Assembly: GCA_021775475.1 (NCBI GenBank)
Contig: JAJFHS010000022.1
Location: 18,871-82,870, forward strand
DNA from: Hyphomicrobiales bacterium
GTDB taxonomy: Bacteria; Pseudomonadota; Alphaproteobacteria; Rhizobiales; JAJFHR01
Direction: 5' to 3'
Length of the DNA: 64,000 nucleotides
Under the pieces are notes generated by a model that worked only from the letters and a program-made list of their open reading frames with translations, was not told the DNA's origin and searched no databases. The translations under genes and the position numbers were made by a program. How positions within the stretch are numbered: position 1 is the first letter of the stretch; each line of letters opens with the position of its first letter. This document shows, piece after piece, positions 29,654 to 48,041 of the stretch.

Positions 29654-29911
29654 ATGGCTGAAAAACCGGACACCGCAGCAGACATCGAAAAAATGAGTTT
29701 TGAACAAGCCCTGCACGAGCTTGAAACCATTGTCGCCAAACTCGAAAGCGGCTCGGTCGAACTCGAGGTCTCCATCGACCTTTACGAGCGCGGCGAAAAA
29801 CTCAAAAATCGCTGCGAGACCCTGCTCAAAAAAGCCACGGCACGCGTTGAAAAAATCACCCTGAGTTCGGATGGCAGCGCGCAAAAGACCGAACCGCTGG
29901 ATGTGGAGTAA
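29654..29911 (+). CDS. xseB: Exodeoxyribonuclease VII small subunit
   Basis: [20 protein letters not shown]...[11 protein letters not shown]. Confidence 0.93.
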
Positions 29912-29929
29912 AACCTTACATACCCCGTA

Positions 29930-30048
29930 TTCGTCATCCTCGGGCTTGACCCGAGGACCCATTCCTCTGAAGTCTCTACAACAAAGACAGTCCCGTTGTT
30001 TCTGCAAGCCCATCGCTATGGACCCTCGGGTCAAGCCCGAGGGTGACA
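29930..30048. repeat. CGTC-type REP doublet, copy D (diverged; same orientation as B)
   Basis: TTCGTCATCCTCGGGCTTGACCCGAGGACCCAT and ATGGACCCTCGGGTCAAGCCCGAGGGTGACA; spacer alignable to copy B. Confidence 0.9.
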
Positions 30049-30126
30049 GAAGAGAGAGTGTTTGTTGCAAGAATTTTGAACCCGCAGCAGCAGTTTTCAC
30101 ATAGCGCACAACACCATAATCAAAAT

Positions 30127-30861
30127 TCACATGAATTTTCGTTTTCTAAAAACTTTCACATCGCTGGCTGTAAGATTAAACCATTCACCTTTTAAGCGTT
30201 TATCCTTAAAGCGATTGTGCCAATAAGCTTCAATCCCGCTTGGATCATCTGTTTCGATGCTGTGTATTGTCTGAATTTCTTCAGGGAGTTGCATCCCTAT
30301 TTCATATCGGCGGCGATCAAGCTGATTAGTTCGACCAATTTTATAAAATTTACCAGACTTCAGCAAATACACGTAGCCATAATCGGTACTGCCGGTTGGT
30401 TCTTCTGGAAGGACTTCAGAATTTTTTGGCGGGGCTGAACGAATTGCTTTGTCACAAATAGCAATGATGTCTTTATAGCCTTTTTTGCCCTCACAAAATG
30501 TTTTCAAAAATTCAGCACGAATGGAAATTTTTCCCATATGATGGTTAAACGTGTGTTTATGAGGGAATTCTTTTTCATTGCGGGATTTGAGCATCACCTC
30601 AGATTCAATGGGAAGTTTCCCAATCTCACGTATGAAATCAATATATCGGTTTATGACGTCATCTGGATCAAATTTAGTGTTTATTTTATTAGGTGACAAT
30701 CCGGCTTCTGAAACCGCATCACTCCATCGTGCCCAGTACTTTCCACGCCAATCACTTGTTTTAACGTTAGAAAACTTCTCAATCGACTTCATGCCAGGTG
30801 ATTTACCTTGATGCGCCTCGGCATATTCTTGAATTTTTTGTAATATATATTCTTTGTCCAT
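30127..30861 (-). CDS. GIY-YIG superfamily nuclease (T5orf172/MUG113-like C-terminal domain) with two N-terminal homing-endonuclease-associated-like repeats
   Basis: GYVYLL..YKIGRT..RR..E..H..F..KRLKGEWF; N-terminal WSDAVSEAGL and IREIGKLP..FPHKHTF repeats; visibly AT-rich. Confidence 0.82.
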   Translation of the reverse strand: MDKEYILQKIQEYAEAHQGKSPGMKSIEKFSNVKTSDWRGKYWARWSDAVSEAGLSPNKINTKFDPDDVINRYIDFIREIGKLPIESEVMLKSRNEKEFPHKHTFNHHMGKISIRAEFLKTFCEGKKGYKDIIAICDKAIRSAPPKNSEVLPEEPTGSTDYGYVYLLKSGKFYKIGRTNQLDRRRYEIGMQLPEEIQTIHSIETDDPSGIEAYWHNRFKDKRLKGEWFNLTASDVKVFRKRKFM

Positions 30862-30922
30862 TGTTCTTTTCTATCTCAAAGCTCAATACCATGTCGAGCG
30901 TTTGAAAATCTGCGCCGATACA

Positions 30923-30969
30923 AAGCCCGAGGATGGCAGATGGACGAGGGTTGAAATTTTAAAACACGA
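30923..30969 (+). repeat. Half REP copy E (right-arm end plus tail)
   Basis: AAGCCCGAGGATGGCA matches AAGCCCGAGGATGACG at 14/16; tail resembles the copy D tail. Confidence 0.6.
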
Positions 30970-31101: not shown

Positions 31102-31623
31102 ATGAGATTTGCAACAGTGTTAGCGCGCGCGACCGTAGCCATAATGCTTTTTTCAGGTCTTACCGTTGCAGTCAGCGCCCAAGAGGCAGATCTGGTGTTT
31201 AAGAAAAGCACCACCTTCAATTTGCTGACGCCCAATAACAAGCTCGCCACCTACGGAATTGATGATCCGCTGGTGCAGGGAGTTGCCTGTCACTTTACCG
31301 TGCCGGAAAAAGGCGGTGTGAAAGGGTTTTTCGGGCTGGCGGAAGAACTTTCTGATGCATCTCTCGCCTGCCGGCAGATTGGACCGGTCACCTTCAAAGG
31401 CAAATTCGAGCAGGGCGATGAAATGTTCCGGCAAAGACGCTCGATCTTTTTCAAGAAAATGCGCATTGTGCGCGGCTGTGACACCAAAAGAAATGTTCTG
31501 GTCTATTTGATTTACACCGACAAACTGATTGACGGATCACCCAAGAACTCCACGTCCACCGTACCAATAATGCCATGGGGCACGACTGTTGCACCAAAAT
31601 GCGCTGATTTTCTGGAAAAATAG
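31102..31623 (+). CDS. creA: CreA-family exported protein
   Basis: Signal peptide; DDPLVQGVAC, SDASLACRQIGP and GSPKNSTS motifs. Confidence 0.85.
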   Translation: MRFATVLARATVAIMLFSGLTVAVSAQEADLVFKKSTTFNLLTPNNKLATYGIDDPLVQGVACHFTVPEKGGVKGFFGLAEELSDASLACRQIGPVTFKGKFEQGDEMFRQRRSIFFKKMRIVRGCDTKRNVLVYLIYTDKLIDGSPKNSTSTVPIMPWGTTVAPKCADFLEK

Positions 31624-35257: not shown

Positions 35258-35379
35258 AACCCCTCATCCATCAGCTCCGCTGACACCTTCTCCCGCAAGG
35301 GGAGAAGGGAAAAATAGATAAAACGCTTCCTTCTCTCCTTGTGGGAGAAGGTGGCGCCGAAGGCGTCGGATGAGGGGTT
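35258..35379. repeat. CIR/BRU-RS-like cruciform intergenic repeat (second repeat family)
   Basis: AACCCCTCATCC..hairpin..CACCTTCTCCCGCAAGGGGAGAAGG and its inverted partner ending GGATGAGGGGTT; between convergent genes. Confidence 0.85.
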
Positions 35380-46481: not shown

Positions 46482-46760
46482 GTGAATAACGACGAACCAT
46501 ACGAGTGGAACGAGATAAAACGTCAAAGCAATCTGGAGAAACACGGCCAGGATTTTGCCGATGTCCGATTGCTGCAATGGAATTTGGCAATTTGCACCAC
46601 ACAGATTGTGAAAGGTGAAACGCGCATTCTAAGCTACGTCCCGCTCAACAATCGCCTTTTCGCGGTTGTCCACACGGAGCGTGGTGTGAAACGCCGTATT
46701 ATCAGCTTTCGCAAAGCCAATAGTAGAGAGATGGATTATTATGAAAGAGAAACTGATTAG
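46482..46760 (+). CDS. brnT: BrnT-family ribonuclease toxin
   Basis: YEWNEIKRQSNLEKHG.DF, GETR and RIISFRKANSRE motifs. Confidence 0.9.
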   Translation: MNNDEPYEWNEIKRQSNLEKHGQDFADVRLLQWNLAICTTQIVKGETRILSYVPLNNRLFAVVHTERGVKRRIISFRKANSREMDYYERETD

Positions 46761-46995
46761 GAACCTCCCTGAGGAAGACGTCGAAATCCAGAAAGGCATC
46801 GCCGCCGACCCTGATACCTTTACCCTTGAACAATTCAAGAAAGCCAAACGCGGTCGCCCGCCGATGCCTGAAGCCGAGAGAAAACAGCAGGTGACCATGT
46901 TGCTGGATAAAGACGTGATTTCTCACTTCAAGAAAGATGGCCGCGGCTGGCAAACACGGGCAAATGAAGCCCTGCGCAAGGCGGCGGGGCTGTAG
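46741..46995 (+). CDS. brnA: BrnA-family antitoxin
   Basis: RGRPP..K..VT..LDKDV..HFK..GRGWQTRAN.AL; overlaps the toxin. Confidence 0.9.
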   Translation: MKEKLIRNLPEEDVEIQKGIAADPDTFTLEQFKKAKRGRPPMPEAERKQQVTMLLDKDVISHFKKDGRGWQTRANEALRKAAGL

Positions 46996-47078
46996 GTGTA
47001 GTTACGAAATACACTGAATTAAGATGGCAGTATCTTGTAGGAATACGGTAATGGCTATTGCAGGTGAGAAATTTTGCT

Positions 47079-48041
47079 ATGGAACCTAACGCCAGGCAAC
47101 AACGATTATTTGAGATATTCCATCCATTTGCGGTGAAGAAAACAAAAAAACGTTCAAAGCCAGGAAAGCGCTTTGTACATTACACAAGTGCTGAAAATGC
47201 CGTTTCGATGATTGTCAAAAAAGAAATATGGATGCGCAAGGCCAGCCTGATGAACGATTATATGGAAATCGAACATGGTATGGAATGTTTGCAGCATTCC
47301 TATGATGGCGAGAATGGTGATGAATTTCGCCAGGCAATTGATGACCTATTCCCCGGCATATCAGATGAGTTGCAAGAGCGCTTCAACGGTTGGTTACCTC
47401 ATTTTCGAGTAGGAACATTTCTAACAAGTCTTTCTGAACATGACAAATCGGAAGATGAACATGGAAGGTTGTCTATGTGGCGATCTTACGGCGGGGTCAC
47501 GGGAGTTGGTGTGGTGCTTAATCCTGCTGTGTTCTTGACACCATCCGATGCGTTAAACGCCTATACCAGCCCTGTAGCTTATTTAAATCCCAAAGAATTT
47601 AAAATGAAATTCGATGAAATAACTACAAATGTTATGAACAAGACAGATTGGTTAAAGACATGCGAAAAACAGATTGTGCTCAACTATTTATTTTCCATGT
47701 TTCGATTTGCCGTCCTTTGTACAAAACACCCAGGATTTGCCGAAGAACGTGAATGGCGCATTATTTATGCTCCAGAATTTGAAAAATCAAAGCGGATAAT
47801 TGAGGAAATAAAAACGATCAAGGGTATCCCACAAACGATTTGCAAATTACCCCTGAAAGATTTTCCTGAAGAAGGTCTTGTTGGGGCATCTATTCCCGAA
47901 CTTGTTGAGCGAATAATTGTTGGTCCAAACGATCATGCATATGAAGTTAAGGCAACTTTCATAAGGTTGCTTCAAGGCGCGGGTATGAGCGATGCATCTC
48001 AAAAGGTCTTTGTTTCTGGTATTCCTTTGAGGTCAAATTGA
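47079..48041 (+). CDS. DUF2971-like protein
   Basis: HYTS, MND..E, SLSE, LSMWRSY, KHPGFAEEREWR and IIVGP motifs; AT-rich. Confidence 0.78.
   Translation: MEPNARQQRLFEIFHPFAVKKTKKRSKPGKRFVHYTSAENAVSMIVKKEIWMRKASLMNDYMEIEHGMECLQHSYDGENGDEFRQAIDDLFPGISDELQERFNGWLPHFRVGTFLTSLSEHDKSEDEHGRLSMWRSYGGVTGVGVVLNPAVFLTPSDALNAYTSPVAYLNPKEFKMKFDEITTNVMNKTDWLKTCEKQIVLNYLFSMFRFAVLCTKHPGFAEEREWRIIYAPEFEKSKRIIEEIKTIKGIPQTICKLPLKDFPEEGLVGASIPELVERIIVGPNDHAYEVKATFIRLLQGAGMSDASQKVFVSGIPLRSN

Follow-up and report, generated by a model that had tools for sequence, protein, structure and literature searches.

A single AT-rich nuclease gene lies between xseB and creA in a member of the Hyphomicrobiales, enclosed by a doublet (D) of CGTC-type REP repeats and a half copy (E) of the same repeat. 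This REP-edged one-gene unit shows filled, empty, IS-occupied and deleted alleles within the genus. Because empty alleles exist and congeners are devoid of the gene, the data support a true presence/absence polymorphism of the unit, with edges located within REP copies. We assign a probability of roughly 55% to the explanation that the unit enters and leaves by recombination between repeat copies, that its second repeat copy was later trimmed to E, and that its cargo is defensive. All positions refer to the window, i.e., the whole stretch of 64,000 nucleotides that was analyzed.

Results

Layout of the xseB-creA interval

The features of the interval are compiled in Table 1. The earlier note had given correct positions for the nuclease gene, D and E, and its description of an AT-rich single gene between the right end of D and a same-orientation E was confirmed: the unit measures about 890 bp and contains a single ORF with a GC content of 0.386 as compared to 0.50 for the genome. 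The GC3 of this ORF is 0.33; xseB, the deacetylase gene and creA show GC3 values of 0.52-0.60. Orthologues of xseB were found in four congeners.

Table 1. Features of the xseB-creA interval (window positions).
Feature	Position	Strand	Remarks
xseB (exonuclease VII small subunit)	29654..29911	+	Left flank; Pfam PF02609, E=8e-19
Doublet D: two head-to-head CGTC-type REP/SRM hairpins, 55-nt spacer	29932..30047		
Left copy of 18-nt direct repeat (right end of D)	30033..30050	+	Marks the left boundary of the presence/absence unit
REP-like tail and 3' flank of the nuclease gene	30051..30126		Within the inserted unit; missing in empty alleles
Cargo nuclease gene, 244 aa	30127..30861	-	MUG113/T5orf172
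Upstream region of the nuclease gene	30862..30924		Inferred deletion junction: terminal 8-nt motif 30917-30924
Half copy E (right copy of direct repeat), loop to CGTC tag	30923..30940	+	
Native creA-side REP tail	30941..30968	+	Orthologous tail after the REP end in G004 and in the empty alleles of X4 and X6
creA	31102..31623	+	Right flank; Pfam PF05981, E=2e-47

D and E display the marks of CGTC REP/SRM repeats, namely a CGTC/TGTC tag, a stem of 8-9 bp, a loop of 4-5 nt and a CCA tail, and they also agree with this class in the occurrence of head-to-head dimers and of many intergenic copies. The family comprises 146 matches at ≤6 mismatches in the genome, corresponding to about 91 loci. D folds at -36.1 kcal/mol (z -7.45); no fold was obtained for E (z 0.43). 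The right end of D and E are identical at 16 of 18 nt with a spacing of 890, and identity over 30 nt amounts to 77%. As previously proposed, E begins at the hairpin loop, more precisely inside it, at the third base of the 5-nt loop.

E is beyond chance, and the genome contains no other orphan half of this kind. A 15-nt half repeat with ≤1 mismatch matched the genome 133 times, three times outside whole REPs; these three orphan matches are E, a whole REP with an extra base and a match reading as coding sequence. In 3.86 Mb, E is the one place where the exact 13-nt half pattern is not part of a whole REP, in line with the expectation that E-like matches would rise above background. Furthermore, a profile built from 47 other doublets gave a sole match in the 1001 nt searched, at 30923-30956 (E=0.002).

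The 8-nt motif at 30917-30924 resembles the outer tail of the REP family and was found at -20/-19 in seven of 132 REP tails, with 0.43 expected for a pattern that was picked after the fact. A further tail likeness had been suspected between about 30070-30084 and 30955-30968; it proved to be out of register, and comparison of alleles revealed that the tails after D and after E differ in origin. No long second copy of either gene flank (30048-30126, 30862-30922) exists in the genome, where the best other matches are 17 and 18 nt long. A likeness of the upstream region to a doublet spacer, noticed by eye, was not supported by the doublet profile. Elsewhere in the window (35258-35379), two convergent genes have between them a 51-nt inverted repeat that belongs to a different palindromic family.

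Alleles in congeners and public sequencing runs

The nuclease gene was present in none of four congeners (79-97% complete) and in eight of 400 other genomes of the order. In G004, one REP half follows xseB and another precedes creA; both halves are attached to an IS end where their contigs break off. The creA-side tail of this genome is orthologous to the tail after E, and the xseB-side REP is common to G002 and G004. In G002, a D-right-type hairpin is followed by 75 nt of the left edge of the unit (87% identity) and then by a jump to about 31680; this genome is devoid of the nuclease gene, E and creA at the site. The identity of the left edge is close to that of housekeeping sequences (89%), so that an old insertion with later, derived empty alleles is conceivable. 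G001 contains two discordant creA contigs and shows 5% contamination. The outgroup G003 has no REP, and its xseB is followed by another gene; due to this different gene order and the missing REP, gain and loss cannot be polarized.

Contigs from four public runs were compared with the stretch, none of which spans all of it. Empty xseB-creA sites, which the earlier note had suggested looking for across strains, were found in runs X4 and X6. The joint runs from 30050 to the native tail and on to 31074 in X4 (one contig, depth 28) and from 30050 to the native tail and on to 30967 in X6 (one contig, depth 2.1). The REP side of these joints is short (37 nt in X4), so that the contigs link the REP to the creA tail and do not span from xseB to creA. 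The same runs contain filled alleles of 92-96% identity, which represent other strains. Record 19 of X4 (29962-30406), which runs across D and the 3' end of the gene, differs at 20 of 445 nt; record 30 of X6 covers 30422-30943 with 42 differences in 522 nt, including the 5' part of the gene and E, and it is this 92%-identical contig that covers the E junction. Summed depth in X4 was 0-10 for the insert and 130-260 for the flanking genes, values that include other organisms and give no share of cells. Pieces identical to the window occurred in X2 and X3, which belong to one study; this study may be the source of the window.

An additional contig of X6 (depth 3.9) departs from the reference at 30906, is alike for 30910-30924 and continues with a REP-type tail and the start of a whole REP. 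This allele is represented by a single low-depth contig with 82% likeness, and a circle junction would look identical. As the upstream region runs into a whole REP in this contig, E is probably a trimmed second repeat and not the scar of an insertion into the loop.

At four of five matched ends in G004 (L114-L118, L027, L030), the IS abuts a CGTC REP at a point two bases beyond the loop. At xseB-creA, the loop flanks of the IS ends lie in inverted and not in direct orientation; this could mean that the REP loop is mimicked by the IS termini or that an inverted duplication arises when the IS inserts into the hairpin. A 135-nt query with this IS end found no match in G000 (the genome of the window), G001, G002 or G003; a related IS end occurs at a G002 locus (L141).

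The nuclease protein

Pfam analysis of the 244-aa protein revealed matches to MUG113 (E=1e-15) and T5orf172 (E=5e-9), none to PF01541, and a sub-cutoff match of residues 2-55 to HNH_repeat (E=0.027). An alignment of 80 relatives shows no variation at the GIY-YIG residues Y165, G176, R184 and E211. With Pfam matches above cut-off and conserved catalytic Tyr, Arg and Glu, the protein belongs to the MUG113/T5orf172 (GIY-YIG) nucleases. The family comprises 1149 relatives at E≤1e-10; the closest proteins (P0002, P0003) share 63-64%.

A structure model (pLDDT 92, pTM 0.55) shows two helical modules, a disordered linker and a C-terminal nuclease domain. Middling similarities connect residues 1-54 with a TetR-like HTH (Z 6.7, rmsd 2.1, 53 aligned) and residues 157-244 with Slx1 (Z 6.4, rmsd 3.0, 80 aligned). 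Foldseek returned nothing from the PDB at E≤0.001, no NCBIfam family matched, and the Atlas matches were solely unnamed clusters sharing the architecture. The search for a defence role gave no match above a curated cut-off; PADLOC reported a weak match of the nuclease domain only to the candidate PDC-S57 (E=4e-4), and PHROG a match to a homing endonuclease. We predict DNA binding by the two N-terminal helical modules and cleavage of foreign DNA, from phages or plasmids, by the GIY-YIG domain. The nuclease is likely a defensive cargo and not the mobilizer of the unit.

Genomic contexts of homologues

Homologues were analyzed at 88 genome loci, 80 of them supplemented by 8 from an order-level survey. 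At three loci from distant bacteria (L051, L079, L087), the gene is placed within a head-to-head doublet and has CGTC repeats to its left and right at ssn-like distances of -45/+32, -48/+54 and -83/+35; at L051 and L079 the repeat is shared with an adjacent ssn gene. A one-sided CGTC match was found at seven of the 88 loci, four of which look like chance (L034, L043, L086, L091), and a tRNA within 200 nt at five. CGTC matches were about threefold denser near homologues (14 in 42.5 kb) than far from them (36 in 332 kb).

Addition of 56 of 58 metagenome and viral loci (two short fragments were omitted) extended the set to 144 loci, with 136 left after dereplication and both flanks available for 119. 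Among these 119, a strict attC rule was passed by eight loci (0.6 expected in shuffles), and a repeat common to both flanks was detected at 11 as compared to two of 150 control windows, which were mostly coding. Five relatives were confirmed on viral contigs.

In a quick tree of 122 rows with context labels assigned by eye, 11 CGTC-linked rows needed six changes as compared to a mean of 10.1 for shuffled labels, and well-supported branches force at least two. L051, L079 and L087 occupy separate positions, and three of the four rows in the smallest well-supported clade of the window protein are without a clear CGTC repeat. Since CGTC matches are denser near homologues and the labels cluster on the tree beyond shuffled ones, some real link of the family to CGTC repeats exists. 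Taken together, the contexts show the family to be general cargo: it is found in integrons, at island edges and within several repeat families, and is modestly overrepresented at CGTC repeats.

Homologues were also observed between paired repeats of several unrelated families (L059, L075, L107, L181, L183, L050, L186, L198), in Planctomycetota, Chloroflexota and others. Uncultured lineages may generally tend to carry cargo bracketed by repeats.

Recombinases, ssn genes and other REP sites

The IntI profile TIGR02249 gave no match above cut-off in any of the five genus genomes, with G000 being 94% complete. A Y1 transposase flanked by cognate REPs, as in RAYT/REPIN elements, was not found; the sole Y1_Tnp match is sub-cut-off and lies amid several copies of a different hairpin repeat (G000 C25:320-1400, L025). 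No REP half occurs in the 3.4-kb loci around the two IS110 genes of the genome, and the unit itself contains neither a transposase gene nor IS ends of the kind that REP-targeted IS110/IS4 elements would bring.

Homologues of ssn were detected in all five genus genomes with at least one match each, two of them in G000. One G000 ssn gene (C4:459-743) shows the layout of the studied unit, i.e., a right REP end, a minus-strand gene and again a right REP end. Short tandem remnants of REP tags lie downstream of this ssn (C4:330-793; L022, L237). The second ssn (C23:96.7-97.1 kb; L242) adjoins a different CGTC-type hairpin variant, which is also present in G001 and G003 (L238, L239). A doublet-ssn-doublet arrangement occurs in G039, and G028 displays the order ssn, REP, an unknown 250-aa ORF, REP, ssn (L231). 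In G020, REP clusters are accompanied by a low-GC DUF4041+MUG113 gene and by a gene with a GmrSD domain (L230, L232).

With a loose detector, repeats on both sides were found at 37 of 68 ssn loci of the order. At the ssn loci, four of 37 repeat-bounded intervals without ssn, located at three loci, were at least 0.05 below the GC of the locus. Eleven REP-to-REP intervals shorter than 4.5 kb were identified in G000; one is ssn, and the other ten have a host-like GC of 0.48-0.53. Low-GC flanks at REPs (6 of 164) were barely enriched over a background of 2.3%. In an uncontrolled comparison of congener REP sites, a gene beside the repeat was present in one genome only at five of 40. A genome-wide scan for direct repeats with exact 13-nt seeds, which misses D/E too, found no second REP-bounded low-GC unit. 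Cargo arrays were not seen, and any existing ones are rare. A cassette system dedicated to Ssn and REPs, should there be one, looks rare.

A further segment of the window (46482-48041, GC about 0.43) contains a DUF2971 gene, identified by Pfam, and two small ORFs that resemble a toxin-antitoxin pair of the BrnT/BrnA type; the corresponding site in G002 consists of the CGTC doublet alone. Two AT-rich single ORFs with ends adjoining a CGTC REP, similar to the studied gene in this respect, were observed at C23:72376-73008 (GC 0.35) and C17:125-1522 (GC 0.39) of G000; the former is without a second repeat, and the latter begins at a contig end.

Discussion

Proposed gain and loss by recombination between repeat copies

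We propose that the 890-bp single-gene unit would arrive as a repeat-ended fragment at the CGTC doublet between xseB and creA. The first filled state would consist of the doublet, the gene and a second repeat, an arrangement shared with ssn genes. An internal deletion running through the second palindrome and joined at a few shared A residues could then have produced E, and recombination between D-right and E would restore the empty site. Host recombination (RecA) would suffice for these steps, perhaps aided by Ssn nicks at the hairpins, and a dedicated recombinase would not be needed.

The cassette idea of the earlier note agrees with our data as far as the single-gene cargo, the empty alleles and the congeners without the gene are concerned. 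Its circle recombining at the hairpin loop is doubtful because a whole REP follows the upstream region in one contig and no REP-linked recombinase was found. A related and in our view rather unlikely explanation regards CGTC/SRM repeats as cassette sites, where a trans-acting enzyme, most plausibly Ssn, together with host repair would excise single genes as circles and insert them at the hairpin. E starting within the loop would fit, the X6 joint of 30906 to 29932 is readable as a circle junction, and the three homologues inside CGTC doublets, two of which share a repeat with ssn, lie at ssn-like distances and at different positions of the tree. The order ssn, REP, ORF, REP, ssn in G028, the ssn homologues in every genus genome and the genes that differ directly beside REPs at five of 40 congener sites, a number without control, point in the same direction. 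Tentatively extended, this would make CGTC/SRM repeats and Ssn an integrase-free route of gene capture, in which the ssn slot also takes unrelated accessory genes and repeat-ended circles move between roughly 90 sites; the nuclease family would then have been captured independently several times (in this window and at L051, L079 and L087). However, repeat-bounded intervals at ssn loci are of low GC in four of 37 cases, ten of the eleven REP-to-REP intervals of this genome look host-like and the eleventh is ssn itself, low-GC flanks are barely enriched at REPs, and no cargo arrays were seen. Furthermore, the published SsnA cuts upstream of the hairpin and reduces integration of repeat-flanked DNA, as far as the available part of that study describes it (PMC11893778).

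Recombination between repeat copies also has to be weighed against an insertion, illegitimate or anchored by homology, in the course of which about 18 bp of the REP end were duplicated. E would then be a target duplication and never have been a whole repeat. The direct repeat of 18 nt with 16 identical positions and the empty allele with one copy accord with such an event, and target duplications of variable length arising without a recombinase are described in the consulted part of PMC2853133. Yet the unit opens with a REP-like tail that is absent from the empty allele, the bases before E match the outer-tail motif, and one allele runs into a whole REP; we consider this explanation improbable.

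It is very unlikely that E is the scar of a REP-targeting IS which inserted into the loop, with an adjacent deletion or replacement later putting the gene beside the half repeat. IS ends are joined two bases past the loop at the same locus in G004, four of five matches to this end abut a REP identically, and REP-targeting ISs are known (PMC1525189, from the part available). However, the 135-nt query found the IS end in none of G000-G003, despite a related end at a G002 locus, 30862-30922 contains no IS end, and E starts a few bases inside the position of the IS junction.

A homing-type endonuclease that recognizes the REP family through its N-terminal repeats and spreads itself into REP sites, the other suggestion of the earlier note, is largely refuted and hardly credible: T5orf172 genes of phages are of homing type according to the accessible part of PMC10448857, and the weak HNH_repeat match, the PHROG match and the HTH-like N-terminal modules would agree with it, but a single copy faces about 91 REP loci, all intact, 3 of 88 homologues are CGTC-bracketed as compared to 42% published for ssn (PMC11893778, in part) and 37 of 68 ssn loci here by a looser detector, three of four clade rows are without a clear repeat, repeat-linked copies are scattered on the tree, the family occurs in attC cassettes and in unrelated repeats, and viral contigs yielded five confirmed relatives.

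Significance

The xseB-creA interval is a natural and well-documented case in which a dispersed REP doublet serves as gain-and-loss site for one accessory nuclease gene. The case bears on the role of CGTC/SRM repeats in alphaproteobacteria and on the mobility of the repeat-ssn-repeat unit, which the available part of PMC11893778 puts forward as a hypothesis. The cargo belongs to an uncharacterized protein family with over 1,100 members, which is carried by integron cassettes and found at other hotspots; the family is a candidate for defence. If it were true that Ssn is needed for excision or integration, a new route of gene capture would result.

Comparison with known systems

Integron gene cassettes (attC/IntI) are one-gene units bounded by hairpin sites. 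The studied unit resembles them as a one-gene unit at hairpin sites, and the same protein family occurs in attC cassettes elsewhere; it differs in that no attC motif is present here, no IntI above cut-off occurs in the five genus genomes and no array is formed.

Among the ISs that target REPs, ISRm22, ISRm19 and ISPpu9/10 were described by Tobes and Pareja (2006; PMC1525189, available part). There, as here, foreign DNA enters a REP at or near the hairpin axis, and an IS does so at the orthologous site in G004. Unlike these elements, the unit has neither a transposase nor terminal inverted repeats, and the two IS110 genes of the genome are located away from REP halves. D corresponds to the head-to-head dimers of CGTC-tagged REPs (Di Nocera et al. 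2013, PMC3733652); in the parts of that paper covered, gene-sized presence/absence units between direct copies do not appear.

Phage T5orf172 homing genes similarly join this domain to repeated DNA-binding modules, which are Zn-finger CapR/DUF723/DUF4397 repeats in genes near essential phage genes according to the part of PMC10448857 at hand. In contrast, the family of the window has helical modules and occurs mostly in cellular genomes and in single copy.

Ssn (cd10448) nucleases with NTS/SRM repeats were described by Chenal et al. (2025; PMC11893778), in whose accessible text 42% of ssn genes are repeat-bracketed and mobility of the repeat-ssn-repeat unit is raised as a hypothesis. The studied unit shares with them the repeat super-family, the GIY-YIG gene bracketed by repeats and the layout of the ssn gene of this genome. 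Ssn proteins are single-domain and about 95 aa long according to the same text, whereas the window protein is multi-domain, has 244 aa and belongs to MUG113/T5orf172, which separates it from Ssn. Strong linkage to SRM is a feature of Ssn that the nuclease does not share (3 of 88 loci as compared to 37 of 68 ssn loci by the looser detector), and T5orf172 is absent from the main text of Chenal et al. (PMC11893778).

Furuta et al. (2010; PMC2853133) described nuclease genes that are enclosed by direct repeats and whose site is empty in a relative. As in the units described in the available part of that paper, a single nuclease gene lies between direct repeats, one repeat is left at the empty site, and there is no recombinase. 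The empty site with one repeat copy in a relative, a feature of long target duplications, was found here in two runs with one contig each. The units differ in that the repeat is here a dispersed REP, with 18 nt of duplication surviving in the window as compared to their criterion of >30 bp; one X6 contig suggests that the second repeat was longer earlier. In addition, the studied unit brings its own REP tail, and its gene is not RM.

The literature consulted, mostly open-access main texts without supplements, contained nothing on CGTC/SRM-bounded cargo cassettes or on this nuclease family; the supplementary tables of repeat-flanked genes of PMC11893778 may bear on novelty. The unit is neither an integron cassette, an IS, a RAYT element nor Ssn. 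As far as the part of PMC2853133 used here allows the comparison, it behaves as a variant of an insertion with flanking direct repeats, with a layout borrowed from ssn units.
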